DNA of 64,000 nt from a virus. Below are positions 1 to 36,636 of the stretch, in pieces (within the stretch, counting starts at the first letter, position 1; the number at the start of each line of letters is the position of its first letter). Below the pieces are notes generated by a model that had not been told where the DNA came from, did no database searches, and saw nothing but the letters and a program-made list of their open reading frames with translations. The position numbers and the translations under genes were made by a program. The stretch covers positions 50,923 to 114,922 of the IMG/VR virus record IMGVR_UViG_3300027797_000001; one strand, written 5' to 3'.

Positions 1-3000
1 GGTGGTTTACCTAAAGCTCAAAAAGGTGCAGCTACATACCAAGATAGTTTAGATGTATATAATAATGCTTTAAAACTAAAAGCTTTTTATGATTCAAAAA
101 AACAATTATATAATATATCTACTAGACCATGGTATGGTACAAGCAATTTAAAAAAGGAAGAAAAAGAAACATATGATTATGATAAAAATCCGGCTAACAA
201 TCCGGATGTAAAAACTTGGACACCTCAACAAAAAAGAAATTTTCAAAAAACAAAAGATTTAATTAAAGCAAATAAAGATCCAAACATTGCTTATATTACA
301 GATCTAATAACAGGTGCTTTAGATCCAGATGCTCCTGCTTCAAGATATGATAATAGAATTAAACCTCAATCAGAAATAGCATATTCGCCTTATAAAGCTC
401 AATATTCAAAAACAGAAGACTCACTTTATGACAAACTTCAGAAAAACTATGATGGTATGAGTAGTTATGGTGATCCAAGATTTCCTACCTTAACTCCAAG
501 TAAAAAAGATCTTTTAGATTATGCTAAAAAACTTGGTTATAGTCAAAAAGATGCTATAAGTCTTTTATATAAACTTAAAAGAGAAAATCTTGCTATGGCA
601 AACACACCTGGAGTTAATACTATCTTACCATATTATGATCCTCTTGCAGTAAAACCTGGGAAACTCCTTACAGATGATGAAATAAGAATTAGAGTTAAGA
701 AATATGGTACAACTGGTATTCCTCAAAATAGATTAGACAAACTTGGTTTAAATAGTTCAAACCCACCAAAAAGTTCAAACCCACCGAAAAAAAGTACATC
801 TTCTACAGTTACTAAATCACCATGTTCAAATCCAACAACTACTGTTATAAATAATGTACCAGATAAAATTCCTTTTGGAAAAAAGTTAGTTGGTACAGAT
901 GAAGAAACATTACCAGTAACTGGGAAAAAATGTGAGTATGTTAAAACTATAAATCCAATTTATGAGGATGTTACAATAGATCCTATTAAACCCCCAGCAA
1001 TTGCATTAAGAGTAGACAATGGTATTTTACCACCATTGCAACAATCAACTTATGTTCCACAAGAACCTATTGAAGCTCCACAATATGCATTAGGCCCTTA
1101 TACTGCTGATAGATTACGTTTATCAGTAACACCTGGAAAAACAAAAAAAGTAACAAAACGTGGAAGATTGTTTGATGGTAAAGGTCAAGGATATAAACAT
1201 ACAGAATATAAATCAACTAAAGATTTGGAGTTTGGAAAAAAAGAAGTTACTAGATTAATACCAAGAATTGTTCAGAAGATTACTGGTTATGATCCAGAAT
1301 ACTTTGAAGGTTCTTATGATGAAGAAGGTAACTATATTCCTGGAGAATTAGACTTTGGTAATGAGGTTGGTGGTAGAATGGAATTTAGAGGAGCTGCATC
1401 TTTACAAGATTTAATAAATCAACAGAAGTATGCAAAAGACTGGGAAGAGTATGAAAGAAAGATTGATGAGAGAGAAGAACAATCAAAGAAAAAACAAGAA
1501 GAGGGTAGAGCATTTAAAAAAGGTGGAACAAAGAAAAGAATATATAACCCTAATGCAAAGTATTATGCGGATGGTGGAGAAAATTTACAAGAAGAATGTC
1601 CACCATATCACTATTGGAATGGAGAAACTTGTGTTCCAGTTAGTAGAGAGCTTGCTCCTCTTGATCCACAATACTTATCAGAAAATCCAGATGTTGCAAC
1701 AAACATGCAAATTGAACCAGAAGTAAGTGTTAGTCCATTAGGTTCGGATTTTTCCAAGGCAAAGTCATGGATTGATAAATGGCATGATTCTCCAATGCAT
1801 GATAAAATGCTTATGAAATCATTACAGGGTAATAAAAAACTTTTTAAAGAATATAAGGATAAAAGAAAAAAAAATATACAAACTATTCCAGCACTAAATA
1901 TTAGTTTAGATAAAAGTGATCCTTTATATAAAGAAATAAAAGATTATTATGGGTTTGCTCCATGGGGAGCATCGGATAGTAATACAGGTGCTGTTTCAAT
2001 ATATAATTCTCATCCTGGAAATAAACAAATGTTAATTCATGAGGTTACTCATTCTTCTGATAGACCAGATGATAAATTAGGTAGACTTATTCCACCTAAT
2101 GACCAATTAACAATACAATATAGAATCCCATTAAATTGGAAATATAGTCAATATGGTAAAGATATGATGAAAGAATATAAAGAAAAAGGGTGGCGGTTAG
2201 ATGATGAATATATGGGTGAAGAAGAAATACCAAGAGATATATATGAACAACAACAATTTAATGATTGGAATAAATATTTATTAAGTGACCAAGGAACTGA
2301 GGTTAGAGCAAGATTAAGTGAGATAAGACAGGATGCACAAGAACAAAATATTTATGACCCTTTTAATAAAAAAATAACAAGAAGGCAATTTAAAAATTTA
2401 AAAAATATAAAATATCCTGATTCATTAGATGACCTTAAAAAAACTTTTTCTGATAAAGATATAAAGTGGATGTTAAATAACATTTCTAAAAACAATAATG
2501 AAACTGAAGATGCTATTCAATATGGTAAAAAAGGTGGGGCAAAGAAAAAATACACAAGTGATATAATTAATAGTACTAATTATCTTTTTGCGGAACATCC
2601 TTTATTTAAAAAGAAGAAACAATCTAAGAAAAGAATATATAACCCTAATGCAAAGTATTATCAATTAGGTGGATTAACACGATTTGTACCACAAGCTGGT
2701 AGAATGTTTGCTTTACCACCTATTACTAATACAATTGCAAATACTGCACCAGGTATTTTAAATTCTATAAAGACTATATCGCAAAAACTTCCTACTAATT
2801 TATTAGATGAAGGTGCAAGAGATTTATTACATTATCCTAGTTTTGATGTTACACTTGGAGAATCAAATTTAACAGGAGTTGATGCTGCAAAGTATTTGGG
2901 AGACTTTGGCTTTAAACCATATTCAGAAGGTTGGACAGCTCTAAGTGACATGAAAAATGCATTTGAAGGAAAACAATGGAATCCTAGTAAAGAAGATTAT

Positions 3001-5541
3001 TATACTCTTGATGAAATTTATAATTTAATAAATAAGCAAACAAATTATTTAAATGATCTTGCTAAGTTTAATGAAACAAATCCTGATGAATTAGGTGAGT
3101 ATGGAAATTTATTAAGATGGATGCAAAATGATTTTAGTAGAGATGAATTATTTTCATTGTTATTTCCAAATTCTAGTAGACCAAATTTTAAAGAAAAATT
3201 TTATCGCCCAGAACATATAAATTTATTAAAACAAACTACACCCAATCCTGAAACTGGTATAAATTTATATGATAATTTAATTAAAAATACCAATTTTGGA
3301 GATAAAGGTTTAGTAGATAAGTATACATTAAGAAGATCAATAACAGAACCTAATACTGAAATATTACCGGGATCTGAAGATCTAATGTTATATAGACAAA
3401 GATATGAACCCTACAGAGGTTTAGATGCTGGTAATTTAAGTGAACGTAAAGATGTAATAGAGTTTCTTAAAGATCATGATGGCATTTTAGGTTTTGAATT
3501 TAAAGATCTTAATAATGAATATTCCAATAATTTAAATTATTGGAAAGAACAAATATTTGAAAAGTTTGATAATCGACAATATAAAAAATTTCAAAAGAAG
3601 TTTAAAGAACAATCTAAACCTGGAACTAGCTCTAAACTTAAAGGATTAGATGCTTATAATCAAATAATTAATAGAACTGGTTCTAGAAATAAATACGGAG
3701 GAGAACTACCTAAAGGTAAATACGGATACTCTGTTGGTAATCTTATAAGAAAACAATTTGGTGGTTTAGGTAGAGATCAAAGTTTATCAGTTTCACCATA
3801 TGATCTTGATACTTACATTGGAGCTTCTGGAAATCAAATATATAATCCAGGATATAGTCTTACATATAATAAGCCAAACCTTTTTAAAAAATTAGATGTA
3901 GTTGGAACTCCTTTTCAAGTATCAATAGGAAGACCTTATAATACTGATCCAAATAGTTTAACTAATCAATCTTTAAATTTTGGAACATCATATGACTATG
4001 AATATATGGATCCAGGAGTACAACAAGGTCCACAACAAGAAGCTATAAATAATGCAGCTGCACAATATTTAGGAAAGGATGTTCAAGATTTAAACCAATC
4101 TGATTTAAATAAATTTTCAGCATTTAAATCATTAGGGGAAATTAAAAATGCTTATGCTCCAGGAAAACCAATTAATTTATCTACAAAACTTTCATTTTTA
4201 GGTAAAGCATTTAGTGACCAACCTGTTAGAGGTTTTGGATCAATATCTGGTGGTTATAATCCTGAAGCAGGTTTTTGGGCAGGAGCTGATCTTGGAGGTT
4301 TTGGAGTAATCTCAAATAAAAAACCAAAAACATATTTTGATAGAGGTTTATCTAGAAAAGGAGATTGGGCGGTTATTCCTAGTCTTTCTTTATTCTCTCC
4401 AGCAATTAGACAAAAAGGAATTGCAAATCTAGAACAATCTGCAGAGTATAAACGCTTATTAGAAAAAGATATACAAGAGGGTACTGATTCAGCACAAAAT
4501 TATTATGATAATCAATTAGATGATCAGGGTAAGTCAACAATGACATTTAATGCAAGACCGGAAATTAAAGCGCAACTTAAACCATTTAAAAAGTTTCCCG
4601 GAATCTTAGAAGGGGTAGTTGGAGCTAATATAGATTTTATAAGTGGTGGTAAGGATTCTATGGATAAAATTACAACTAATATAAACCCATACGGCAAAAT
4701 ATCATATGCTGTTTCTATTCAAGATGAGTTAGATAGAATGAAACGTAAGATGAAAAATGTAGAATTTCCTGATAAAAAACACTATGAAGATTACGTAGAA
4801 GAATATGAAAATCAAACTACAGAAGAAACTCCTACAGAAACTGATAATCAAATTAATCCACCGGAGGTTGAATTAAATTTTGATGGTCAAGGAGTAGGAA
4901 AAGCAGACTGCCCTAAAGGCTATGAAAGACCATGTGAAAAATGCAGATGTCAAAAAATAAAAATGCCTCAAATGTATACAGACAAAAGAGGTAAACAGTT
5001 ATTTGGCAATGAGCCTATTAGATTTCAAGATGGTGGAGAACAGGATGCAATGAATGCTATGATGAAAGCAAGACTTGCTTATGCTAATATGTTTGGTAAT
5101 CCCTCAGCACAAAGAATGATTAATCTTCCAGATCAACCTTATGAATTTGATAATGGGAATACAGGCACACACTACATGGCAAGTATGGATAACTATGCTG
5201 TACCTCAAATTCAAGATGAGAATGGAGTATTACAGATTGGAAACTATGGTCCAGAATCTACTGAGGCAATGAGATTTGACTCAGATGAAGATGCTAATTA
5301 TTTTGCAGAAAACTATAAAGATGTTTCACCAGGATTTATGGATCTAGAACTTGATGATAATGAGATAGAAGAATACAGAAAAGGTGGTTATATAATAGAA
5401 GATATTTCTGTGCCTTCACTAACTAGAATGCAGCCTGTTGGTAAATATCAAGATGGTGGAGAATATCAATTGGGTGATGAAGTAGATGAAGCTACTATGA
5501 AACAATTAAAAAAATTAGGTTTTACATTTGAACAAATTTAG
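1..5541 (+). CDS. Large modular virion/cargo protein (5' truncated by the window), with GG-motif-delimited modules including a HExxH zincin-like module
   Basis: Frame 1 is open from base 1 (GGLPKAQKGAATYQ...) into the listed ORF at 457, so the true start lies upstream. Contains repeated [FY]xxGG motifs and HEVTH at 2038-2052. Lies in the structural block upstream of the virion RNAP. Confidence 0.75.
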   Translation, partial: GGLPKAQKGAATYQDSLDVYNNALKLKAFYDSKKQLYNISTRPWYGTSNLKKEEKETYDYDKNPANNPDVKTWTPQQKRNFQKTKDLIKANKDPNIAYITDLITGALDPDAPASRYDNRIKPQSEIAYSPYKAQYSKTEDSLYDKLQKNYDGMSSYGDPRFPTLTPSKKDLLDYAKKLGYSQKDAISLLYKLKRENLAMANTPGVNTILPYYDPLAVKPGKLLTDDEIRIRVKKYGTTGIPQNRLDKLGLNSSNPPKSSNPPKKSTSSTVTKSPCSNPTTTVINNVPDKIPFGKKLVGTDEETLPVTGKKCEYVKTINPIYEDVTIDPIKPPAIALRVDNGILPPLQQSTYVPQEPIEAPQYALGPYTADRLRLSVTPGKTKKVTKRGRLFDGKGQGYKHTEYKSTKDLEFGKKEVTRLIPRIVQKITGYDPEYFEGSYDEEGNYIPGELDFGNEVGGRMEFRGAASLQDLINQQKYAKDWEEYERKIDEREEQSKKKQEEGRAFKKGGTKKRIYNPNAKYYADGGENLQEECPPYHYWNGETCVPVSRELAPLDPQYLSENPDVATNMQIEPEVSVSPLGSDFSKAKSWIDKWHDSPMHDKMLMKSLQGNKKLFKEYKDKRKKNIQTIPALNISLDKSDPLYKEIKDYYGFAPWGASDSNTGAVSIYNSHPGNKQMLIHEVTHSSDRPDDKLGRLIPPNDQLTIQYRIPLNWKYSQYGKDMMKEYKEKGWRLDDEYMGEEEIPRDIYEQQQFNDWNKYLLSDQGTEVRARLSEIRQDAQEQNIYDPFNKKITRRQFKNLKNIKYPDSLDDLKKTFSDKDIKWMLNNISKNNNETEDAIQYGKKGGAKKKYTSDIINSTNYLFAEHPLFKKKKQSKKRIYNPNAKYYQLGGLTRFVPQAGRMFALPPITNTIANTAPGILNSIKTISQKLPTNLLDEGARDLLHYPSFDVTLGESNLTGVDAAKYLGDFGFKPYSEGWTALSDMKNAFEGKQWNPSKEDYYTLDEIYNLINKQTNYLNDLAKFNETNPDELGEYGNLLRWMQNDFSRDELFSLLFPNSSRPNFKEKFYRPEHINLLKQTTPNPETGINLYDNLIKNTNFGDKGLVDKYTLRRSITEPNTEILPGSEDLMLYRQRYEPYRGLDAGNLSERKDVIEFLKDHDGILGFEFKDLNNEYSNNLNYWKEQIFEKFDNRQYKKFQKKFKEQSKPGTSSKLKGLDAYNQIINRTGSRNKYGGELPKGKYGYSVGNLIRKQFGGLGRDQSLSVSPYDLDTYIGASGNQIYNPGYSLTYNKPNLFKKLDVVGTPFQVSIGRPYNTDPNSLTNQSLNFGTSYDYEYMDPGVQQGPQQEAINNAAAQYLGKDVQDLNQSDLNKFSAFKSLGEIKNAYAPGKPINLSTKLSFLGKAFSDQPVRGFGSISGGYNPEAGFWAGADLGGFGVISNKKPKTYFDRGLSRKGDWAVIPSLSLFSPAIRQKGIANLEQSAEYKRLLEKDIQEGTDSAQNYYDNQLDDQGKSTMTFNARPEIKAQLKPFKKFPGILEGVVGANIDFISGGKDSMDKITTNINPYGKISYAVSIQDELDRMKRKMKNVEFPDKKHYEDYVEEYENQTTEETPTETDNQINPPEVELNFDGQGVGKADCPKGYERPCEKCRCQKIKMPQMYTDKRGKQLFGNEPIRFQDGGEQDAMNAMMKARLAYANMFGNPSAQRMINLPDQPYEFDNGNTGTHYMASMDNYAVPQIQDENGVLQIGNYGPESTEAMRFDSDEDANYFAENYKDVSPGFMDLELDDNEIEEYRKGGYIIEDISVPSLTRMQPVGKYQDGGEYQLGDEVDEATMKQLKKLGFTFEQI
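754..789 (+). repeat. 18-bp tandem repeat x2 (SSNPPK)
   Basis: agttcaaacccaccaaaa / agttcaaacccaccgaaa. Confidence 0.9.
1531..1566 (+). repeat. 36-bp exact direct repeat, copy 1 (KKRIYNPNAKYY)
   Basis: aagaaaagaatatataaccctaatgcaaagtattat, identical to 2626-2661. Confidence 0.95.
2626..2661 (+). repeat. 36-bp exact direct repeat, copy 2
   Basis: Identical to 1531-1566. Confidence 0.95.
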
Positions 5542-5543
5542 TG

Positions 5544-8500
5544 ATGGCAAAGTATAGAATTACAAGTTTACCGCAGTCTTTACCTAAAGCACAAAAAGGA
5601 TTATTTAATAAAAGAAATAAAATATCTGTTAGAAACGGTGAAGTTAAATTGTTTCCAAATTTATTTGGTGATAAAAAAAGAAACAATATAGATACTCAAG
5701 ATCAATCAGATGATACACAATATAACTGGTCTGGCACAACTCCAGAATTAATGCAACCTGATCAAGAGTCTTTTGAATTAAAACCTACATATGCACCAAC
5801 ACCAGAGTTTACTCAAGCAGATGTTAATTTAAGTTCTACTCTTAGTAAAATACAAGAGGAGAGAGACAGATTAGCTCAAGAAAAAGAAAACAAGGATTGG
5901 GAAGAGATGATGAAAAAAAGAGATGAGAAATTTAAAACTTCTAAAAAATATGATAAAATAGAACCTTTGCTTACAATTGATTCTGAAGGATATGCAGATG
6001 AGGATCTTGCTTATTTTCAAGAGGCTGGATATTTTCCAGTAAAAGATTCAAAAACAAATAAAATAAATTTATATCCATCAAATGAAATAAATTCAAAAAT
6101 TATTAATAATGGTTTAAGAACAGATGAGATTGTTAAAAAACTTGGAATAGGTGATGCTGAATCTGTGAAGTCTGCTTTTGGAGATTTAATGACTGCTGCA
6201 GATCAACAGTATTCGGCTACTGTTCAAAACAAATTATTACAAAAATCACTAGATGAAGGTATTAGTTTAGAAGACGCAGTTAAAAAATTATCTGGTAAAC
6301 TTGGAACTGAAAAAGGTCTTCAAAAATATGTTGCGCCTACTACTGATTTAATAAATAATTATATTGATGAAATTAAAAAAAATGTAAACCAACCTGCGGA
6401 GAAAGAACTTCAGTCAATGTACTATGATAATAGAAATCCTAATCAAGGTTATTCTCCAAAGATTGATTATAATTCATATGATCCAGGGTTAAAATATAAC
6501 ACGGATTATTATAATACTACAAATAATTGGGGACAATTTCTTAAAGACTATTCTGATTATAATAAAGAGTATGATAAAGAATATGCAGATTCATTTTATA
6601 ATAAACAAAATCAAACTGCTGATAAATTAAATTTACCTGTGTCAGATAGAACAGGAAATTTAAAAAATCAACAAGATGTGATTAATCAAAATATATCATT
6701 AACTAAACAAGTTGGAGATGTTTCTACAGAAGCAGGAAATAAAACAATAAATAAGAAGTATATAGAACAACTACAGGCAGACATGGCAAGAGTTTCTGAT
6801 CCTTTAGTTAAATATGAACTAAGTAAAAAACTTGATGCAGTAAAAAATAATCCAGAAGCTTTTTCTAAACTCTTAAAAGGTTTTGAATCTGGAGAAGTCT
6901 TTACAAAAGAAGATGAAGATAATATCAATGCTTTAACTTTTAGTATCCTTCAAAAAGAATCAAATCCAGATACTATAAAAGCTGGTGTAGATAGACCTAA
7001 ACTTACAACATCAGATAAAGTATTTGATGTATTAACTAATCCATTTGACGCATTTAAATATTCAAACCAAGGAGGTTTAGATAATATGTGGACTAGCGGT
7101 ATGGGTTATAATGAAAGAAAACTTTTAGAAAGAGCTAATCCAGAATTAAATCTTGGAACACAAGATAATCTAGTTGGTAATGCTTTGAATACATGGAATC
7201 CAATGAGATTTGCAAGAGATGTAGATTCTGATCTAGATAGAGAAGACTATGCTTCTGCTGGTTTAGAGGCACTTGAGTTTGCTACTCCTGCAATGTTTTC
7301 AAAAGCTGCAAGAGCTGGTAGATTAGCTAGAGACGCAAGTAAGTTTTTTCCAACTGGTTCAATCACACCAGGATTAAAAGGATTTACCGGATCTGCTTTT
7401 GAATCATTAAATCCCTATTTTGCATATGAGGCAATAAGACCAGGGGGAGAATTAAATAGATCATACGATTTACTTAAAGAAGGAAATATTAAAGAAGGAC
7501 TTCAAGAAGGTGCTTTTGGTCTATTAAATCTTTTACCTGCAGCTGGTACTTTTAAAAGTTTAAAAAGTGCTGAAAACATAGGTGGTGCTAAACCATTTGT
7601 ATCACAACAATTAAGTTTTAAGAAAGGAGGAGAGTTACCTACTTATCAAGGGCCAATAAGATCAATTGTAAAAAGTATTCCTTCTAAACTTGGTAATTTA
7701 GCAATGAAGACTGGAATAAAAACATTGCAACTTCCCGGAGTTAAACCTTTTTTTAGAAGTAACTATAATCCAATTAGTTATCCAATTAGTTATCCAATAA
7801 AACTTTTAGGTGAAAAAATAGCTAGACAATCTCTTAGTCCAAGTAGAAATAAAGAACAAGTTATTGCTGCACTTACTAAAAAAGCAGCCCCAGAAGAAAA
7901 CCTTTATTTTGGTAATGTAACTGCTGTGGATCCAGAATATGGTTATGGTAAAAGAGATTTAATTGCTAATTATTTTAGAGGTATAGATACTGGTTTTAAA
8001 CCAATTGACTATGATATTTATTCAGATCCTGGTTTAAAAAAATATATAGATAGATATGGACCTTTAAAAACATATGAACTTAATTCATCTGTTAAACATG
8101 GTCAACCTTTAGACATTGCTGATTTTACTAGGCTGCTAAATATAGATGATACTAAATTAAGTAATTTTGATCAAGATCTTTATGAAGATGAAGTTTTTCA
8201 AAATATGCCTGGTTTAGAAGATTATTACTATAATGAGTATATGAATAATCTTCCTGGAACTAGTACTCCTAGTCCATATAAAGCACAAAGACAATACTAT
8301 AAAAAAATGTTACATCAATATTTTGATAAACGCGGTATAGAAGTTCTCCCTCTAGTTGTTGATCCAGATTTGAATACATTAGGTAATGTTAAAAATTATT
8401 TAAGCCGTAATCCCGCTATATCATATGATGATCTTGCTGGTCATATGGGTTATTTAAAAAGATTGCCAAACAAAGAAGATTTTGAATTTACTACAAGAGA

Positions 8501-8732
8501 TATATGGAAATTTACACCTGATGACTATCATTCTAAATGGGCAGGATCTTCAAATAAAGATGAACTGTTTAAACAATTACAAGTTGAGGCTATGGATGCA
8601 TTTGGAAAACCATTTGTTTTAACCCAAACAAATCCAATGAAATTTAAAAACGGTGGTTCAATGGAATTAGAATTAACACCAAAACAAATTAAAGAGTATA
8701 TAAAAGCTGGATATATCATTGAAGATATCTAA
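5544..8732 (+). CDS. Virion/cargo protein with N-terminal KYRITSLP..LPKAQKG motif and C-terminal ELTPKQIKEYIKAGYIIEDI motif
   Basis: Long ORF (ATG 5544, or GTG 5541). Shares terminal motifs and FKKGG/FKNGG motifs with its neighbours. Confidence 0.75.
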   Translation: MAKYRITSLPQSLPKAQKGLFNKRNKISVRNGEVKLFPNLFGDKKRNNIDTQDQSDDTQYNWSGTTPELMQPDQESFELKPTYAPTPEFTQADVNLSSTLSKIQEERDRLAQEKENKDWEEMMKKRDEKFKTSKKYDKIEPLLTIDSEGYADEDLAYFQEAGYFPVKDSKTNKINLYPSNEINSKIINNGLRTDEIVKKLGIGDAESVKSAFGDLMTAADQQYSATVQNKLLQKSLDEGISLEDAVKKLSGKLGTEKGLQKYVAPTTDLINNYIDEIKKNVNQPAEKELQSMYYDNRNPNQGYSPKIDYNSYDPGLKYNTDYYNTTNNWGQFLKDYSDYNKEYDKEYADSFYNKQNQTADKLNLPVSDRTGNLKNQQDVINQNISLTKQVGDVSTEAGNKTINKKYIEQLQADMARVSDPLVKYELSKKLDAVKNNPEAFSKLLKGFESGEVFTKEDEDNINALTFSILQKESNPDTIKAGVDRPKLTTSDKVFDVLTNPFDAFKYSNQGGLDNMWTSGMGYNERKLLERANPELNLGTQDNLVGNALNTWNPMRFARDVDSDLDREDYASAGLEALEFATPAMFSKAARAGRLARDASKFFPTGSITPGLKGFTGSAFESLNPYFAYEAIRPGGELNRSYDLLKEGNIKEGLQEGAFGLLNLLPAAGTFKSLKSAENIGGAKPFVSQQLSFKKGGELPTYQGPIRSIVKSIPSKLGNLAMKTGIKTLQLPGVKPFFRSNYNPISYPISYPIKLLGEKIARQSLSPSRNKEQVIAALTKKAAPEENLYFGNVTAVDPEYGYGKRDLIANYFRGIDTGFKPIDYDIYSDPGLKKYIDRYGPLKTYELNSSVKHGQPLDIADFTRLLNIDDTKLSNFDQDLYEDEVFQNMPGLEDYYYNEYMNNLPGTSTPSPYKAQRQYYKKMLHQYFDKRGIEVLPLVVDPDLNTLGNVKNYLSRNPAISYDDLAGHMGYLKRLPNKEDFEFTTRDIWKFTPDDYHSKWAGSSNKDELFKQLQVEAMDAFGKPFVLTQTNPMKFKNGGSMELELTPKQIKEYIKAGYIIEDI
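7768..7798 (+). repeat. 12-bp tandem repeat, about 2.6 copies (PISYPISYPI)
   Basis: atccaattagtt atccaattagtt atccaat. Confidence 0.85.
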
Positions 8733-8790
8733 ACCTTTGAAGTTTACTCATTAAATTTATTTTTAGTATATTTAATATATAACGTGCACA
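8730..8790 (+). promoter_or_regulatory. Putative late promoter region: TAAAC-N7-GTTTA box plus TTTTAGTATATTTA..TATA element
   Basis: Same arrangement recurs at 15082-15143; AT-rich intergenic gap ahead of a structural gene. Confidence 0.45.
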
Positions 8791-11700
8791 ATGACAAAAA
8801 AGAAAGTAAGAATATACAAGGCTCCAGATGGTAAAGGTCAGTATATAAATAAAACTGCAAAGTTCTTAAAGAAAGCTGCATTTGGTGGTCAATCAGATAC
8901 TCCGCAAGAGGATATGTATTCTCAATTGGCACAAGCTTCATATATGTCTATTAAAAAGGGACAAAGTCCAAAGGCAGTATATGACTTTTTAATTAATAAT
9001 AAAATTAGTAAAGATGTTGCTGAGAAAATTGTGACAAGTGTTATACAGTTCATGATGTCAAAAGGTGAATTAGAACAAGAAGACCTTGACGAAGATCAGC
9101 AAAAAGAGCAACAGATGCAAGCTCAAATGCAACAACAGCAACAAGAAAAAGAACAAATGGCTTCTGAACAAGATGCTGCTAATGAAGCACAGATGGACAT
9201 GTACAACAAACAAAGTATGGATGTTGCTAATGACATGTCTCAGTATGATCAAGAAGCAGAAGCTAACTTAGATACAGAAGATATATTAGGTTTTCAGGCT
9301 GGTGGTCAAATGACTACAGATGATTTATTGTCAGAACTTAATAAGCATGATAATGATATTAATTTCCAAGATTTAGAATCATTAATTCAGTCTACTCCTG
9401 GAACACAAAGTGCATCATTCCCAGGGATTGAAGAATACTACTTACCTTATATTCCACTTTATAGTGAAAGCAATGAGATTCCAATTTATAATCCAATACA
9501 AAGTGATAATCAATATAAGTTTGGGGGAAAAACAAAAAAGAAATTTATAGGATCAGTACTAGAACTTTTAAAGAAAGAAGAGGGTGGCGAGGATGAAGTA
9601 ATTAATAATACTACAGCTACTCCTAAAGATGATCTTACAAATACTGTTAAGAGAAAACAAGATTCATTTGTATCAGCATTAAGTGACGAAGCTAAAAAAA
9701 TAAAAATAGAAGAGTATTATAATCAAATTAAAAATACAAATGATCCAGATACTCAAGAAATTTTAGGTGGAGGCCCTGATCAAATGAAAAGGGGTGGCAG
9801 AACTAAAAGAAAAGATAATAGACTGCTTAGAAAATTAAATAGAATACTAGGACAAAATGATATGTATGGTATGCAAGGGTATATGCCATATAATTATTTT
9901 AATAAGCGTAGTGGAGATTTTGCAAATCAAAGATTTGATACTTTAGACTATCCATCAATTGCAGAATACTATAAAGCATTGTTAGAGAAAATGCCAGTGT
10001 TAAATCAAATGTCAAGAGTATTGCCTCAAGTAGATGTTTATGACACAGGTTTATTTGGTAGACCAAAGAAGTATAAGATTTCATATAACATTCAACCAGT
10101 AGATAAATCTGCAGAAAGACAAGCTATGGAAGCTGTTATTAAGAACAATACTGGATCATCTTTCCCAATGTTATATCCAAATCCTGGTTATGATGGTTCT
10201 CCTGCTCCAGCTGGTACAATGTTAGATGTAGTTAATGACCGCTCTATAGCTCCTATACAATATGATGCATCTGTAAAACCTATGGTTCCTACAGGTCCAA
10301 TGGCTTTTCAGTTTGGAGGTTCAGCTATTTTTGATCCTTCTGCAAGTACATTAGCAAAATATATCTATGGTGGCAATGATTTTCCAGAAGATTCTAAGAA
10401 TGTAAATGATCCATACTTTTCAGATACTACACCATATCCACAAATGCAAAATGGCGGAGATCCCACTGAATATACACATTATACTCATGGAGCTAATGAT
10501 GTATTTCATGATAACATGAATATGATAAATCAAGCTAAGGATGGTTTAGAAACTGGTGGTGATGAATATGCTCTTGATTATATAAGACAACTTGCTGGTC
10601 AAATGAAGCAGTATAATAAAGCTTCTAGAAAATTAGGAAGGCAGGCAAGAAGAATGACTGGAAATACCATGTTAGATTATTTAATTCCTATCAATAGACC
10701 TTTTGAGTATGCAGGAAGTTATGGTCAACAAAGGGGAATGCCATTTGATTATGAGACCGGTGAAGAATACACCGGTGAAATAGACCCATCTAATTTTGTA
10801 GCAAGGGATAATTATAAAATAGGAATGTTTGGTAAACCTAAAAAATTTATAGATTATTATTCAGTAGGTAATGAAGGACTTAATGTTCCAGATGATTTTT
10901 CAGAAATTGAACCATATACAAAGTCAAAACAAAAAGCTCCTGCTCAACAAGATGTTTATAATGAACAAGAAGAGGAAGACATTTCTTTTCGTCAAGCAAG
11001 AAGGAATGATGGCGTAAGTAATATTAGAGGTGCTTTTGCAAGAATGTTTCCTGAAAGTTCAGGTAGAGAAGATAGAGAAAGAATGTTTCCTATGCTCAGA
11101 GCTCAAGACTCAGATAGAAGTGAAGACAGAAGATTGTTTCCAATGATGAGGGCGGATAAAAAACAAGAAGGTGGAGAACCAAACCAGGATGATTATTATA
11201 ATGATTTATTTTCTAAATTAAACTATAGTAATACCTATAGCAATTATTACAATGAATTAGAATTTAGAAAAGGTGGAAGAGTATTAAGAAAAGCATTTGC
11301 GGGTTTAGAAAATACACCTGTTTCATATAATGACAATCCAGTTACTTCACAAAATATTATTAGTCAAAATACTCCAGATCCTATGGAGCAAATGACAGCA
11401 TTTCAAGGACCTATTATAGAAGATAGTGACTTTAATTTTCCAACTGATCTTCCTGGACCAGTTTCTACAACTAAACCTTATGTTGAACCTGCAGAAGATG
11501 ATTGGTCAGGTCCTCAAATGAGTAATCCAGACATAGATTATCCTGCTGGTCCTGAGAAACTTAAAAATAAATTAGTAGGTGTTAAGAGAAAAAGAAAAGA
11601 TATGTTTAATATAGATCCAGAAGCAGGTGTTAATGCATTTAATGCTGGAGCTAGAGGAGTTCTTGGTGGTATTGATAGAATGAGGAATAAGAAACAAGAA

Positions 11701-12147
11701 GCAAACATGTATGCTAAAAACTTTGACCCTACTAAAATTTATGGACAAAAATCAAGAATAGATAAAGGTGACTATGATGTAAATAAAGGATTGTATAGAG
11801 TAAATCAAATGGGTGCTGATAGATTAGGCCGCTCTAAAAAGTATGGAGGTTATATGCAACCAGGAGGATCAGTAGATCAACAAATGTATTACCCTGAAGA
11901 CAATATGGTTTATCCTCCAGGAGATAGTCAGTATCCAATGATTCCTTTGAATCAAGATATTATGGATATGATGTATAACCAATACTATTCTGATCCTAAC
12001 TTTGCACCTTATATGGAAGACCCATATATGGAAGAAACTCCAGAGCAAATGGACTACAGAATGGTAAAAGAAGGTGGAGAAACCTATATGTCAGATGAAC
12101 AAATAAATGCCTTCTTAGCTGAAGGAGGAGAAATTGAATATTTATAA
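8791..12147 (+). CDS. Low-complexity Q/M/D-rich virion/cargo protein with about 15 xxGG motifs
   Basis: 1118 aa ORF with AAFGG, FQAGG, YKFGG, MKRGG, FQFGG, YIYGG, MQNGG, FRKGG, KKYGG, MQPGG and others; C-terminal MSDEQINAFLAEGGEIEYL. Confidence 0.75.
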   Translation: MTKKKVRIYKAPDGKGQYINKTAKFLKKAAFGGQSDTPQEDMYSQLAQASYMSIKKGQSPKAVYDFLINNKISKDVAEKIVTSVIQFMMSKGELEQEDLDEDQQKEQQMQAQMQQQQQEKEQMASEQDAANEAQMDMYNKQSMDVANDMSQYDQEAEANLDTEDILGFQAGGQMTTDDLLSELNKHDNDINFQDLESLIQSTPGTQSASFPGIEEYYLPYIPLYSESNEIPIYNPIQSDNQYKFGGKTKKKFIGSVLELLKKEEGGEDEVINNTTATPKDDLTNTVKRKQDSFVSALSDEAKKIKIEEYYNQIKNTNDPDTQEILGGGPDQMKRGGRTKRKDNRLLRKLNRILGQNDMYGMQGYMPYNYFNKRSGDFANQRFDTLDYPSIAEYYKALLEKMPVLNQMSRVLPQVDVYDTGLFGRPKKYKISYNIQPVDKSAERQAMEAVIKNNTGSSFPMLYPNPGYDGSPAPAGTMLDVVNDRSIAPIQYDASVKPMVPTGPMAFQFGGSAIFDPSASTLAKYIYGGNDFPEDSKNVNDPYFSDTTPYPQMQNGGDPTEYTHYTHGANDVFHDNMNMINQAKDGLETGGDEYALDYIRQLAGQMKQYNKASRKLGRQARRMTGNTMLDYLIPINRPFEYAGSYGQQRGMPFDYETGEEYTGEIDPSNFVARDNYKIGMFGKPKKFIDYYSVGNEGLNVPDDFSEIEPYTKSKQKAPAQQDVYNEQEEEDISFRQARRNDGVSNIRGAFARMFPESSGREDRERMFPMLRAQDSDRSEDRRLFPMMRADKKQEGGEPNQDDYYNDLFSKLNYSNTYSNYYNELEFRKGGRVLRKAFAGLENTPVSYNDNPVTSQNIISQNTPDPMEQMTAFQGPIIEDSDFNFPTDLPGPVSTTKPYVEPAEDDWSGPQMSNPDIDYPAGPEKLKNKLVGVKRKRKDMFNIDPEAGVNAFNAGARGVLGGIDRMRNKKQEANMYAKNFDPTKIYGQKSRIDKGDYDVNKGLYRVNQMGADRLGRSKKYGGYMQPGGSVDQQMYYPEDNMVYPPGDSQYPMIPLNQDIMDMMYNQYYSDPNFAPYMEDPYMEETPEQMDYRMVKEGGETYMSDEQINAFLAEGGEIEYL

Positions 12148-12156
12148 TTTTGTATT

Positions 12157-15084
12157 ATGTATCATAGAGTAAGAATTAAAAAATTGCCACAGGCAAGAAC
12201 AGGTTACCAAGTACAAGGTTCACTAGCTAATGATGTACCAGCTTTTGGTGGAGCAGATTATAATGCATATATAGGAAAACCAAATCTTAGACAAAGTAAA
12301 TATATTACAGCTGTACCAAGAGATGAAGCTAACTTAGAAGCAGAAGGTGGAGAAACTGTATATGGTGACATCAATGGAGATGGTTTTCCAGAACACAAAG
12401 TTATAAAAGGACCAAGACACTCAGCAGGTGGTGTACCATTATCATTACCAGATGATACATTTATTTTTAGTGATACTAAATCAATGAAGATAAATGATCC
12501 TAATGTTTTACAAATGTTTGGTAAAGCACCTAAGAAAGGAAAAGGTCAACATGGCTTTACTCCAGCAGATCTTGCTAAGCAATATGATATAGATAAGTAT
12601 AGAAAAATATTACAAGATCCTGACTCAGATCATATTGCTAGAAAAACTGCTGAACTAATGATCCGTAACTATAATATGAAGTTAGGAGCTTTAGCATTAG
12701 CACAAGAAGCTAAAAAAGGATTTCCTCAAGGTATACCAGTAGTAGCTAAACCTTACATGGAAGCTATGGGTCTTACAGAAGATAAACTTCTACCAGCTGA
12801 ATATAGAACATTGTCAGCTCCACAAGAAGAAGAAGAAATGCCAGAAGATCAAATGCAAGATCCTTCACAACAATATGCTTCTGATGATTATGATGTAGAG
12901 AATACACCATATGATACAGAAGAAGAAATGGGAATGCAACCTGGTATGGGATTAGATCAAGCAGCCATGGAAGGGCAAATGCAAATGCCACCTATGGCTA
13001 TGTATGGTATGGAGATGGGAGGTTATGATATGCCTTTTGCTGCATATGGTATGCCTATGGGAGCTAATTCTAGTAACTATATGGGAAGAACTAAAAGAAT
13101 CCAAGGTAGTGGTCCATTTCCAAACCGTCAAATGGCTAGAGAAGGAATTATTGCGGGTGGTGTATTAGGTATGCCATTGGTAATGCAAGATGGTGGATAT
13201 TTACCTAAAGCTCAAACAGGACCAACAACACCTAAATATAAAACATATAATGAGGCTGATCTTCCTGCAGGAACTGCAGTTAAAGATCCTAAAGATATGA
13301 GTCTTAAGGTTGGTGATTATGTAAGACAAGCAGATGGTACAGTAACTAAAGTTACTAGTGCGGCTTTAAAAACAAAAGTTGATACACAAACTCGACCTGG
13401 TACAAGAGCAGACTTTATGAATGCATCTGCTGATAACAAAGCTATACTAGAAGCAGGAGATAAAATTATTGATAAAGCAATAGCCAGTGGACAAGCTGTA
13501 AGAGGTTATAAAAAACCAGATGGTACTTGGGTAAATGACAAAACAAAATCTGGTGTAAGATTATTAGGAGATTTAAATTTACCATTTGAAGATAGAATTA
13601 TACTAAGTAGAGCACTTAATTCTTCTCAAGAATTTGGTACTAATAAATATAAGGTTGAATCTCAAGCAATGACCAAAGGTTATTCTAGAAAAGTTGATGG
13701 TAAATTTAAAGGTTCAGGATCTTTTGTTTCTGGATTTACACCTGAAGATTATGAGAAGAGATATCTTTTTGAAAAAGCTAGAGGATTTGGTTTAAATGAT
13801 CAAGAAGCATTTGATCAAATAAATAAAATATATGCGGATCCAGCAAAAACTTCTGAGATTAGAAAAGAATATTTAAATTATTTAGGAAAAGGAAATTTAG
13901 CTACTGGTAAATCAGATGCTGATTTATTAAATCCTAATTTTTATAAAGCTAATTATGCTGAAGTAACTTCTGGAATTGAATCAGTATTAGGTGCAGCAGC
14001 AAATAGACCTACAATAGGTGATGAGCAATTATCTGGTTTTGAGCACTTTGATGCTGCTGGTTTAAGTCCAGAGTTTAATTATGAACCACCTGAGAATCCA
14101 TGTCCATGTAAAGATGATAGTGGTCAAACAGTAGTTAGAGATGCTGATGGAAATTGCCCATGTCCAGATAAACCAAAAGATTGTCCTTGTGGTAAAGATC
14201 CTATAACTGGACAATGTAAACCATGTGACGAAATACCACCGGGAAAAAAACCTCCTGTTACTCCACCAGCTAAATGGTGGTTGCAAGATACAATTAAAAC
14301 TACTGGTGCATTTGGGGATTTAATGGGTATTAAAAAATATATGCCATGGTCACCTAAAGTAGATCTTGAAGAACCAAGACCTACATTCTTAGATCCTACA
14401 AGAGAACTTGCTCAACAGTCTGAACAAGCAAATCTTGCCATCATGAATTTAGCTGCATTTGCTGGACCACAAGCTTTATCTAGTAGAGCATCAAGCATAC
14501 AAGGAACTGGGGCTAAATCAGCCGCAGATACTTTATCTAGAATAAATAATGCTAATGTTGGTATAGCAGATAATTTTGAGATGAAACAAGTAGATATTAG
14601 AAATCAAGAAGCACTTGCTAATCAAGCTGGACAGCAAAAACTTTATGATGCAAATACTATAGCTAATCAACAGTTTGATAATTCAAGAATGGCATTAAGA
14701 AATCAAATGAGAAATCATTATACAAATGCTATTACTAATAAAGCTAAAACAGCTACATTAAATCAGTTGTATCCACAGTACGCAGTCTTGCCAGAGACTG
14801 GTGGTATGCCAGGATTTAAAGGCGGTAAGCCAATTAAACCTGAAGTTACAAAAACTGCTCAAGAATACTTTGATGAGATAAAACTACAGTATCCTGATAT
14901 GGATGACAAAACCGCATATCAAATGGCTAAAGATAGAGCAGGTACTCAAACAACCGATGATAATGCTATGGATGTTGTTAATGCACAATACAATGTTCCA
15001 TCTGGAACAGATATGAGATATGGAGGATTTGCTAATGGAGGCTTTGTTTATGGAGACTCAATCTATCCTTTCTTTTTTACTTAA
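12157..15084 (+). CDS. Virion structural/cargo protein with an EAEGGE...GPRHSAGGV domain and a Cys-Pro-rich segment
   Basis: 975 aa ORF. The N-terminal ANLEAEGGETV...GPRHSAGGVPL...FIFSD pattern resembles proteins of crAss-like structural modules (recalled, not searched). CPC repeats at 14098-14226. Confidence 0.7.
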   Translation: MYHRVRIKKLPQARTGYQVQGSLANDVPAFGGADYNAYIGKPNLRQSKYITAVPRDEANLEAEGGETVYGDINGDGFPEHKVIKGPRHSAGGVPLSLPDDTFIFSDTKSMKINDPNVLQMFGKAPKKGKGQHGFTPADLAKQYDIDKYRKILQDPDSDHIARKTAELMIRNYNMKLGALALAQEAKKGFPQGIPVVAKPYMEAMGLTEDKLLPAEYRTLSAPQEEEEMPEDQMQDPSQQYASDDYDVENTPYDTEEEMGMQPGMGLDQAAMEGQMQMPPMAMYGMEMGGYDMPFAAYGMPMGANSSNYMGRTKRIQGSGPFPNRQMAREGIIAGGVLGMPLVMQDGGYLPKAQTGPTTPKYKTYNEADLPAGTAVKDPKDMSLKVGDYVRQADGTVTKVTSAALKTKVDTQTRPGTRADFMNASADNKAILEAGDKIIDKAIASGQAVRGYKKPDGTWVNDKTKSGVRLLGDLNLPFEDRIILSRALNSSQEFGTNKYKVESQAMTKGYSRKVDGKFKGSGSFVSGFTPEDYEKRYLFEKARGFGLNDQEAFDQINKIYADPAKTSEIRKEYLNYLGKGNLATGKSDADLLNPNFYKANYAEVTSGIESVLGAAANRPTIGDEQLSGFEHFDAAGLSPEFNYEPPENPCPCKDDSGQTVVRDADGNCPCPDKPKDCPCGKDPITGQCKPCDEIPPGKKPPVTPPAKWWLQDTIKTTGAFGDLMGIKKYMPWSPKVDLEEPRPTFLDPTRELAQQSEQANLAIMNLAAFAGPQALSSRASSIQGTGAKSAADTLSRINNANVGIADNFEMKQVDIRNQEALANQAGQQKLYDANTIANQQFDNSRMALRNQMRNHYTNAITNKAKTATLNQLYPQYAVLPETGGMPGFKGGKPIKPEVTKTAQEYFDEIKLQYPDMDDKTAYQMAKDRAGTQTTDDNAMDVVNAQYNVPSGTDMRYGGFANGGFVYGDSIYPFFFT

Positions 15085-15143
15085 ACTTTTAAGATTTATT
15101 AAACTTAATAAATTTTAATATATTTATATTATAATAATAAAAT
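15082..15143 (+). promoter_or_regulatory. Putative late promoter region: TAAAC-N7-ATTTA box plus TTTTAATATATTTATATTATA element
   Basis: Mirrors 8730-8790. Confidence 0.45.
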
Positions 15144-26102: not shown

Positions 26103-26105
26103 GAA

Positions 26106-29100
26106 ATGGCTTGTTTATTAAATGAGAAAGATGTACTAGACATCTATAGTGATATATATGAGAATTTTTTAGAAGTACTTGATTCTAAATCTAAGACACC
26201 ATTTAGTCCTATAGATTATATTAAGACAATGCATTCTGACATTGCAGAGAATAATGATCCAAAGTTTGCATTAGAAGTAGTTCAGGCAATCCCACAAATC
26301 ATGTTGCAAGTAATTGCAACTAGAGGAGATGTTAGAAAATATATTGCTCTTAATAATATTGATACTAATTCTTTAATTAAGTTATCTGTAGACTTTGAGA
26401 AAATTGAAAATGTAAAAAAGTTTATAGCAGGTAAGATGCCATCTTTGTCTGATGTTAAATCTAAGATAGCTACAAAGAATAAATCTGATAAAGAAGTTAA
26501 ATTAAAAAATCCAGAAGATACATCTGAAAATAGTGATAATAAAGTATCTAATACAAAAATAGAAGATCCTTTAACATCTACATTTCAATATGCAAAAGCA
26601 GTTAATCCTGACACAGCTACAGAAGAAGAGTTAGAGCAAAGAGATCCTGAAAAAAATACCACACACTCTGTAGTAAAACAAATCATTGGTCTATTTGATA
26701 ATAGACCTGCAAATAGTGATGAAGTTATCTATCAAGGTACATCAGTTGCTTTAAGACCTATGATGCTTAACATGGTTCCTAAAGAACAATTGTTTAGTGA
26801 TGATGCAAAATTTTTAGAAGAAAATCCAGAATATAATGGGATAGTAGTTATTATCTCAGATGTTGATGGTAATATTTTAAACTTTGATGAAGATGGTAAC
26901 TTAGTTGATGATGGTAAAATTGCATATCAGTATTTAAGAGATTTAGAATTAAAAAATTCAAAGATCTCTTTAATGAATAGATCAGGATATAAGTATGAAC
27001 TAGTAAGTGCAGAACAAACTTTAAAAGCTGAAGACAAAAAAGAAAAAGAAAGGAATGGTCTTGGAATGTCTCAGAAACAAAAAGAAAATAGACTCATAGA
27101 AATTGAAAATGAGCAAAAACAAAAAATGAATGATCTATATAGAATCAGACAGTTTGTTATGCGTAATCCAGAAGAGGTATTTACTTTAAAGATTATAGGT
27201 GGCTCATATGGTAATTTTAAAAATAAGTTTATACCACTTTCAGAAACTGGATTAAATTTAAATGAGATTACATTACCTATTGCTGCAGGTCCGCAAAAAG
27301 GTTATATAAAGGTTAGAATTAAAACTAAAGGTGCTGGTGGTTACATAGATCACTATGTCTTATTACAAAGAGGGGATGTAACTTCAGAGATAGCAGATAA
27401 GATAGCTACAATATTAACTACTGATGCTGTATATAGAGGAAAACCATTATCAGATCTTGCTAAATATACATATGCAAATGTATTTTTAGATAATGCTATT
27501 GAAAAAAATAACATTAGAATAGATCTAAAAAAAGTTAATGGATTTAATGAATTACAAGTTTCTATCAAAGGAGAGAAGGTTGATTTAGATTCACCAACAG
27601 CTTTTGATGAAATTAAAAATCATTTACTTAAAGCGGTAGAACTAGGGAGTAAAACATATCCTGCTAATTTAAATTACAATAAAGATTTAATTGGAGGATC
27701 TTTTACTGATTATATAATTAAAGATGGAAAAGTAAGCACTAGAAAACAAGATTACTTTGAGTTTATTAAACCTTATATGAAAATTGAGTTTAGTAAATTA
27801 TCTGGAGGCTTCTTTATGAATAGTAATTCATATCTACAATTTGCGGTTCCAGAAGAAATTTTACCACCTAGTAAAAGAAATTATAGTTTAGCATCAACTA
27901 CATCTACAACAAATAAAGTAAAAGAAGTAGAAACACAAGATGTTGAAGATGAAGAAAGTGTAGATGTAGAACCAGGTGAGGTAGTATACAATCTTAAAAA
28001 ACAAGTTGGGTACGCACTTGCTACAGAGAATGCACAGAATACTGATGTAACATTAAACATTGCTGTTAATTTTGAACAGGGAGAAGCTAAGATTGCAAAG
28101 AGAAGTGCAAAGAATCATGTTCCAGTTACACTTAATAAAAAAAGATCTACACAAAAAAGCTTTGGTAATTTAACTACCATAGCTGGAAATGTAATTAAAC
28201 AACTAAATAGATTCAAGTCAGATACATTAAATGTAGCAGGTAATGATATTGTTACATCTATATTTAATGGTTATACACAACAAGATCTTGATCAGTTTAT
28301 GAATCAGTTATTTGAAAGAATAGTTAATTCAGATAGCTTAATTACTCCAATTAAAAAGATTGTAACTACTGGTGAATCAGGAGTTCCTGAATCAGCAATT
28401 AAGGCAGCTAAGAAAAATGGAATTGGTGTTGAAATTACTGTACCTACAGGATGGACTTTCTTTGTCTATAGAAAAAATAGTGCAAATAAAAAATACAAAA
28501 TATCAAACCTTGAAGAATTTAAGGCAAGATTTGGGGATGCTAAAGTAAAGACAACAGCTAAAAGAAAAACTAGTAGTACTATTAATAAAACTAAAAGTAA
28601 ATTTACTAAGGCTAAAACAACTAGTAGAAAGACAACTCCTAAGAAGACTACTAAACAAGCAAATAAGAAAGTAGATACTCAATTAAATAAATCTGCAATA
28701 AGCACACAGTTTAGTTTATTATCTAGACTTGGTGAAAGAAGAGAGTTATTTAAAGGAGACAATGACGAACTTAATAGATTAGATACTTTAGAAAGAAAAG
28801 TGGGTAATTTCTTTGAGAGATTATTTACTACTAAAGCTCAGAGAGATTCTATTTATAAGTGGTGGGAAACTCATCCAATGTCTAAGCATGTTCCTTTAGA
28901 TATTATAACCGGGATTGTTAATTCTGATGCTTTTGCAACTTGGAGCCAACATGGTATTACTTTGCACTTAGCAAATAATGCTACCCCTATTGACTTATGG
29001 CATGAGGCATGGCATGGATTTACTCAGTTATACTTAACTCCTGAAGAAAAAACTAAACTCTATGATGAGATTAGAAAAACTCCAAAGTTTGAGAATGCTA

Positions 29101-36632: not shown

Positions 36633-36636
36633 AAAA

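Follow-up and report, generated by a model that had tools for sequence, protein, structure and literature searches.

Paired terminal motifs at the junctions of consecutive large genes in a crass-like phage, candidate connectors of split cargo proteins

We analysed a window of 64,000 nucleotides (nt), the right-hand 64 kb of the virus record IMGVR_UViG_3300027797_000001, in which four consecutive large open reading frames (ORFs), named ORF1 to ORF4, are linked by a recurring pair of short peptide motifs: a module at the extreme C-terminus of one protein (C-module; c1, c2 and c3) and a basic strand at the N-terminus of the next (N-strand; n2, n3 and n4). Going by gene position, these four genes probably encode virion cargo or ejection proteins. 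The invariable co-occurrence of the two motifs at gene junctions of related viruses, their joint absence from natural ORF3-ORF4 fusions and the presence of the c1/n2 pair only where ORF1 and ORF2 are split strongly support, on comparative sequence grounds, a functional coupling between the C-module of gene n and the N-strand of gene n+1. The explanation that we favour, with somewhat better than even confidence, is that the motifs are strand-complementation connectors of split cargo proteins, in which a strand-helix-strand fold and a hairpin are predicted and the binding itself is inferred.

Motif pairs at the junctions of ORF1 to ORF4

The C-module spans about 25-30 residues and consists of an xxGG motif, a short strand, a helix ([E/D]L[T/S]xxE[I/L]xx[Y/F]), a glycine and an acidic strand ([I/V]E..), whereas the N-strand is a basic segment of 7-9 residues with the pattern K-[V/Y]-R-I-x-K, of which K-[V/Y]-R-I is common to n2, n3 and n4. 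The pairs fall into three classes: TFE in c1 with YRIT in n2, I[IV]E[DE] in c2 with VRI[YR]K in n3, and [VIL]E[YF][LI] in c3 with VRIKK in n4. A sequence-only reading of this window had quoted terminal peptides of these proteins, and every one of them was found in its place (Table 1); the C-terminus of ORF1, for instance, reads ...DEATMKQLKKLGFTFEQI before the stop at the ORF end (5541). Hidden Markov models (HMMs) of the motifs, built from related loci, were run against the entire 114,922-bp genome translated in six frames. Only four sites were matched by the C-motif HMM (the ends of ORF1, ORF2 and ORF3 and one position inside ORF1; 17.7-30.7 bits, the next match reaching 4.9), and the N-motif HMM matched only the starts of ORF2, ORF3 and ORF4 (14.8, 11.7 and 7.1 bits, the next match reaching 3.1). 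Since the models match these sites alone in the entire genome, chance is excluded as the source of the motifs in the window. The pattern also stops at the chain end as had been claimed: ORF4 has no C-module, ORF5 begins with MATYIQG and has no N-strand, and neither terminus was matched by the motif HMMs.

Table 1. Positions of the ORFs, terminal motifs and spacers of the ORF1-ORF4 region in the window
Feature	Position	Strand	Description
ORF1	1..5541	+	1,936 amino acids (aa); 5' end 270 nt upstream of window; modular, cargo-like; one internal and one terminal C-module
Internal c2-type C-module of ORF1	5335..5406	+	FMDLELDDNEIEEYRKGGYIIEDI; followed by SVPSLTRMQPVGKYQDGG, no basic strand
c1, terminal C-module of ORF1	5464..5538	+	YQLGDEVDEATMKQLKKLGFTFEQI; followed by TAG stop, ORF2 ATG 2 nt later
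ORF2	5544-8732	+	1062 aa; starts MAKYRITSLPQSLPKAQKG, ends ...ELELTPKQIKEYIKAGYIIEDI (stop)
n2, basic N-terminal strand and LPKAQKG element of ORF2	5544..5600	+	MAKYRITSLPQSLPKAQKG; motif HMM
c2, terminal C-module of ORF2	8658..8729	+	SMELELTPKQIKEYIKAGYIIEDI; motif HMM
ORF2-ORF3 spacer	8733..8790	+	58 nt; palindrome AAACCTTTGAAGTTT starting in the stop codon; promoter-like TTAGTATATTTAATATATAA
ORF3	8791-12147	+	1118 aa; starts MTKKKVRIYKAPDGKG, ends ...YMSDEQINAFLAEGGEIEYL (stop)
n3, N-terminal strand and helix of ORF3	8791..8889	+	MTKKKVRIYKAPDGKGQYINKTAKFLKKAAFGG; motif HMM
c3, terminal C-module of ORF3	12079..12144	+	ETYMSDEQINAFLAEGGEIEYL; modelled as strand, helix, strand
ORF4	12157-15084	+	975 aa; starts MYHRVRIKKLPQARTG, ends ...GGFVYGDSIYPFFFT (stop); last chain member, no C-module
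n4, basic N-terminal strand of ORF4	12157..12204	+	MYHRVRIKKLPQARTG; unstructured alone, pairs with the c3 strand in the tethered model
Spacer upstream of ORF5	15085-15143		Shares palindrome with the spacer upstream of ORF3

The motif pair is widespread in uncultured phages, with about 80 related viral contigs and, for the ORF3 family alone, 208 cluster representatives (E≤0.001); ORF2 had 28 homologues besides the window's own protein. Alignment-based scans of IMG/VR gave 10, 62 and 9 loci; a single-sequence scan of viral contigs with ORF2 gave no match, but the alignment query did find loci. Gene order was constant across the related loci (ORF0, ORF1, sometimes ORF2, ORF3, ORF4, ORF5), and the termini of the proteins were nearly constant whereas their bodies fell to 25-30% identity over a more than two-fold range of length. 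ORF2, which only part of the clade possesses, has conserved termini around a middle that falls to 25% identity and a length that varies more than two-fold, and both the N- and C-termini of the ORF3 family are conserved. The invariant motif residues (Gly, Ala, Phe, Leu, Val and Ile) are encoded by 2-5 synonymous codons: GGA, GGT or GGC for Gly, GCA, GCT or GCC for Ala, CTT, TTA, TTG or CTA for Leu, GTA or GTT for Val, and ATT, ATA or ATC for Ile. Because the codons at invariant residues vary freely, selection, as read from these alignments, is on the motif peptide and not on the DNA.

Co-occurrence was assessed by counting all the non-redundant junctions of consecutive plus-strand ORFs in the related loci and in the window's own genome. 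At 100 junctions (8 c1, 41 c2 and 51 c3) a terminal C-module above the HMM threshold was followed by a basic strand on the next gene, and at another 6 a sub-threshold c1 or c3 end was followed by one. No junction had a terminal C-module without a downstream N-strand, 241 had neither motif, and at 11 an N-strand was present although the upstream protein ended without a C-module. In all, 106/106 terminal C-modules were paired with a downstream basic strand (52/52 when c3/n4 was counted alone), which is the co-occurrence in related genomes that a docking pair had been proposed to display. The sequence-only reading had held that a C-terminal motif in one gene is always followed by an N-terminal motif in the next: for terminal copies this was borne out, but the C-module is also found internally (40 unique copies) and the converse fails at the 11 junctions.

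Natural fusions, splits and structure models

Natural fusions, put forward earlier as a way to judge the docking proposal, do exist and are the most telling line of evidence. Fused ORF3-ORF4 proteins with an ORF3-like start and an ORF4-like end (1,724-2,171 aa) made up more than 20 protein clusters, and they are encoded by single uninterrupted ORFs, in the usual gene order, on viral contigs of 51-76 kb. At the fusion point, the C-terminal domain of ORF3 (...NSGLFR.D..GQ.W.S.YGG) is followed, after 0-10 residues, by the ORF4 element (K/R)x(R/K)TGxQ, and in all the fused clusters c3, of about 22 residues, and n4, of about 11, are missing. In a maximum-likelihood tree built from the N-terminal domain of ORF4, fusion corresponded to 2 changes, one group being a pair nested among split forms (Shimodaira-Hasegawa-like approximate likelihood ratio test, 93) and the other an 18-member clade whose sisters are split. 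No ORF1/2-ORF3 fusion was found among the proteins longer than ORF3 that were searched, which is weak evidence. The ORF1-ORF2 junction behaved in a parallel manner: genomes without ORF2 have one ORF1 ending in a c2-type module, genomes with ORF2 have the additional c1/n2 pair, and modules of the ORF2 body occur within the single ORF1 proteins of other genomes. Because ORF3-ORF4 fusions lack both motifs and c1/n2 is found only where ORF1 and ORF2 are split, the motif pair, in the genomes compared, occurs at the cuts in the protein string and nowhere else.

Two observations on rearrangement were made alongside. ORF1 and ORF2 are mosaics of shuffled modules, in the window (1-8732) as in the related loci; residues 1764-1901 of the window's ORF1, for example, match residues 88-225 of one related ORF1 (L014) and the C-terminal end of another (L026). 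Moreover, one 1070-aa protein (P0123) has an n4-like start (MKKHKVRIKRLP), an ORF3-like C-domain at residues 124-209 and then permuted ORF4 segments, with ORF4 649-883 ahead of ORF4 38-241; it must be a relative that has undergone rearrangement or else an assembly error.

In the window and in 25 relatives, ORF3 and ORF4 share one reading frame through the TAA stop and three codons, and the natural read-through of the two, with the TAA read as Gly, was modelled with AlphaFold2 from a 26-row alignment. The only confident part of the model (predicted local distance difference test, pLDDT, 81-86) comprised a strand at 39-42, a helix at 44-52, a strand at 56-62 and a further strand at 67-73, that is, strand ETYM, helix DEQINAFLA, strand EIEYL, a four-residue turn and strand HRVRIKK, and the natural termini of ORF3 and ORF4 fall in the turn of this predicted hairpin. 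When residues 1-260 of ORF4 were modelled alone, a domain at 45-215 was predicted with pLDDT above 90, and residues 1-12 had no structure (pLDDT about 60), as expected for a strand that would need a partner. Prediction of a complex between c3 (40 aa) and n4 (40 aa) with custom alignments scored 0.22, below the mark of 0.32, a score that weighs on neither side of the binding question. A Foldseek search of the PDB with the junction model retrieved nothing at E≤0.001, which is expected for a unit of about 35 residues.

Docking and the other explanations

In the arrangement that we favour, ORF1-(ORF2)-ORF3-ORF4 would be a string of protein modules punctuated by the recurring C-module, and wherever the string is split the N-terminal strand of the downstream piece would complement, as an added strand, the sheet formed by the C-terminal module of the upstream piece. 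Held head to tail non-covalently, the pieces would then act like the single polypeptide of the relatives, and the residues that distinguish the three pair classes could set the chain in gene order. Actual binding, co-incorporation into the virion or ejection order, and a later removal at the flanking xxG(G) would be inferred steps of this scheme. The place of the split can be read from the sequences: an internal module reads ...GGYIVEDI-SVPELTKAQKG, whereas the split form reads ...LGYTFEKI (stop) MAKYRIT-SIPQSLPKAQKG, so that the cut lies directly after the acidic strand, and in the downstream gene the LP.A..G element common to both forms is preceded by an additional strand of 7-9 residues.

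Several points weigh against this arrangement. The binding of C-module and N-strand is putative; the tether favours a hairpin by design, and the read-through model can only be supportive. The motifs are too invariant for a test of covariation, which relatedness also confounds. Fusion arose only about twice, and a single origin is compatible with the well-supported branches of the tree. The virion location of ORF1-ORF4 comes from gene order alone. Furthermore, the C-module had 56 matches (40 unique) inside ORF1 and ORF2 homologues, usually one per ORF1, and these copies run into S[VI]P[ES]L.[KQ]AQ.G(G) or D.Y..GG, never into a basic strand; since no such strand follows them, the C-module, on this pattern, has some role independent of an N-partner. 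The 11 junctions that retain an N-strand behind a protein ending without a C-module are the converse case. In several of them (L013, L021 and L011) the upstream ORF passes from xxGG directly into the palindrome of the downstream spacer, the peptide KLNKFIH being encoded by AAACTAAATAAGTTTATTCAT, and the c2 segment has therefore been deleted. Divergence has gone on since then in at least two of these N-only lineages (L013 versus L021), so that the N-strand may serve some purpose by itself.

The same junctions nevertheless speak for coupling when whole genomes are considered. In 8 of the 11 the upstream proteins are complete in the locus, and each has at least one internal C-module; the n3 strand, in turn, is missing only where the upstream proteins hold no C-module at all (L011, L020 and the distant L069). 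Because the complete N-only upstream proteins have internal copies and n3 is lost only in the absence of any module, coupling, by this comparison, is rescued at the genome level. Docking as originally put forward stands in part: the coupling behind it is backed by the junction counts, the fusions and the c1/n2 split, the two strands pair in the tethered model, and it has against it the internal copies and the N-strands without a terminal C-module. Two side observations concern the same motifs. In two near-identical contigs (L007/L008, 10001-12972) ORF2 is interrupted, leaving an 863-aa ORF that lacks a C-module and one of 115 aa that has a c2 module, suggesting a frameshift or a sequencing error, and in a distant relative (L083, 7938-8020) the basic strand is present twice at the N-terminus of ORF4 (MQYRVKISQEPDIYKVRVTSPPKAKT).

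The chief rival explanation, possible though less than likely, is that the two motifs are independent tags with no mutual binding. On this view the basic N-leader would serve for capsid targeting or packaging and be removable, much as the leader of T4 internal proteins, and the acidic C-module would be a separate portable tag or spacer; both would be excised at xxG(G) during maturation, and gene boundaries would coincide with the spacers of a polyprotein-like array. This removable-spacer model is kept alive because C-module and N-leader are bracketed by xxG(G) and GG is enriched in ORF3 (17 observed versus 6.6 expected). [F/Y/M]-x-x-G-G motifs are found throughout ORF1-ORF4 (window 1-15084), where they bracket every C-module and follow every N-leader, the N-strand being succeeded by KAQ.G, ARTG or KAQ.GG; they are possible, putative processing sites. 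Internal C-modules without an N-partner and the N-only junctions are what independent tags would produce, and since the fused ORF3-ORF4 proteins retain GG and (K/R)xRTG, the same mature products could come from fused and split forms. The protease and the cleavage are hypothetical, however, and no protease for the GG sites was identified. Independent tags also give no account of why none of the 106 terminal C-modules is without a downstream N-strand, why every fusion has lost c3 along with n4 when C-modules inside proteins are tolerated in other places, or why the two motifs are offset by one gene, ORF1 having no leader and ORF4 no C-module.

More improbable is a neutral or selfish gene-splitting cassette, made of a stop, a start and the flanking codons and spread by recombination, whose peptides would merely permit termination and re-initiation. 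The three junction types are alike and ORF1 and ORF2 are highly mosaic, as such a cassette would have it, and the gap between stop and start is short and uniform (2 nt at c1/n2 and, in most cases, 8-10 nt at c3/n4), with TAA in 32/32 in-frame c3/n4 cases checked. Yet the peptides have been kept through abundant synonymous change, down to 25-30% overall identity, and those of c2/n3 are equally conserved although that junction is not translationally coupled, having a spacer of 57-58 nt with its own promoter-like element.

Very improbable is a DNA or RNA element at the gene ends (a recombination handle or a regulatory site) or read-through of a single ORF by stop-codon recoding or frameshifting: two of the spacers do hold conserved nucleotide elements and crass-like phages are known for stop-codon reassignment, but synonymous sites within the motifs vary freely. 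Translation stops at TAA, or at TAG with an in-frame TGA behind it, and the ORFs stay open when code 11 is applied. The frame from one gene to the next is not constant across the relatives: most gaps measure 8, 9 or 10 nt, a few 3-6 nt. A split intein was discarded, the motifs measuring about 25 and 10 aa versus fragments of about 100 and 35 aa, with no conserved nucleophile after the N-strand or at the start of the C-module.

Returning to the strand-complementation connectors, ordered packaging or ejection of the cargo, also part of the sequence-only reading, is speculation, consistent with the question left open for phage crAss001 (PMC10172136) of how several giant proteins of crass-type podoviruses enter the head and then pass the narrow tail in order. 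An elaboration that we consider unlikely takes the three orthogonal C/N pairs as an order code: a single ORF1-ORF2-ORF3-ORF4 chain of about 5,000 residues, non-covalent or covalent (through a Lys-Glu/Asp isopeptide bond across the paired strands), would first be packed into the capsid and would then thread through portal and tail, following gene order and with one protein pulling the next, and the connectors would perhaps be clipped at xxGG afterwards. The connector hypothesis is concrete and testable at the scale of peptides; the motif pair would be a small natural split-protein connector of possible use in protein engineering, and it can serve as an annotation marker for genes that are otherwise unannotatable.

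Known systems and neighbouring genes

Docking domains of polyketide synthases and non-ribosomal peptide synthetases (PKS/NRPS) include beta-hairpin types in which a bound terminal peptide forms an additional strand. As in those systems, matched elements lie at the very C-terminal end of one protein and at the N-terminus of its successor, gene order would be assembly order, several pair classes occur within one system, and the elements are absent when the proteins are covalently fused, here in the ORF3-ORF4 clusters. The differences are that the phage motifs have no sequence relation to them (no Pfam family at E≤0.01 but for a chance-level SutA-RBD match), that the polarity is reversed, the folded unit being C-terminal and the added strand N-terminal, and that virion proteins of a phage rather than enzymes are concerned, for which binding is putative. 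Chaperone-usher and type V pili are assembled by donor-strand complementation or exchange, in which, as proposed here, the N-terminal strand of subunit n+1 completes the sheet of subunit n in head-to-tail chains. Unlike those pili, the phage chain would consist of heterologous single-copy giants and not of a homopolymer of Ig-like pilins, its acceptor measures about 25 residues, and no chaperone or usher is known. Internal proteins of phage T4 carry a capsid targeting sequence, a short N-terminal leader that may be removed by a protease, and n2, n3 and n4 resemble it in being short conserved leaders on otherwise hypervariable proteins. The T4 leader is independent of its neighbours, whereas n4 is lost together with c3 in fusions and n3 only in the absence of any upstream C-module. 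Terminal docking by strand addition is thus already known from NRPS/PKS and pili; the papers searched held no description of the motif pair, and none of them linked docking domains with phage ejection or cargo proteins.

In crAss001, gp45 and gp46 are cargo proteins (PMC10172136). Their genes resemble those described here in lying between a large muzzle-like tail gene and giant RNA-polymerase-like genes; the termini of gp44-gp47, in contrast, are without such motifs, and no sequence or profile similarity was found. The ORF4 domain was compared in several ways. Against the PDB it gave no match, either with Foldseek or as a profile against PDB sequences, hhalign with crAss001 gp45 gave nothing, and the crAss_CARG1 HMM (Pfam PF25725) did not match the ORF4 N-terminal domain even at E≤10. 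A language-model feature search (Atlas) did return crAss_CARG1 (score 0.91), and the domain (within residues 1-260, window 12157-12936) could be superimposed weakly, as a whole, on 7qog_M, the gp45 fragment in the crAss001 portal assembly (VIA-align Z 5.0, root-mean-square deviation 5.5), over 95 residues at 23% identity and with a score tied with unrelated helical rows.

The whole record is a complete virus of 114,922 bp with direct terminal repeats and a GC content of about 31%. PHROG head families were matched by three of its proteins (terminase, portal and major head protein), and its portal shares 23-33% identity with those of Crassvirales and of Flavobacterium, Cellulophaga and Leptolyngbya phages. 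Because of these matches, the phage, as classified by its sequence, is a distant, uncultured crass-like phage. ORF1-ORF4 are preceded by ORF0 (1,836 aa, tail-like) and followed by ORF5 (1,080 aa), after which come three giants of 2,571, 3,508 and about 2,380 aa. ORF1-ORF5 could not be assigned to a family in Pfam (E≤0.01) or PHROGs, and a tblastn search of 50,697 phage records retrieved one 7% fragment for ORF2 and none for ORF3 or ORF4. A SutA-RBD Pfam match on the c3 motif remained below threshold (16.5 bits versus a cut-off of 29.3) and was treated as chance.

The spacers upstream of ORF3 and ORF5 are nearly fixed in length in the relatives (L001-L072), mostly 57-58 nt for the former and 55-66 nt for the latter. 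In both, a palindrome (AAACTTnnnnAAGTTT) starts within the stop codon, and behind it lies a promoter-like TTAAATTAAAATTTAGTATATTTA or TTAAAAAATTTTAATATATTTA. These elements, which about 45 genomes have conserved, look like a terminator or operator together with a late promoter. Further downstream, ORF6 ends in ...KNKNCNI and ORF7 starts with MAC (window 26085-26115), and ORF7 in turn ends in ...DPFACKI (36600-36650).

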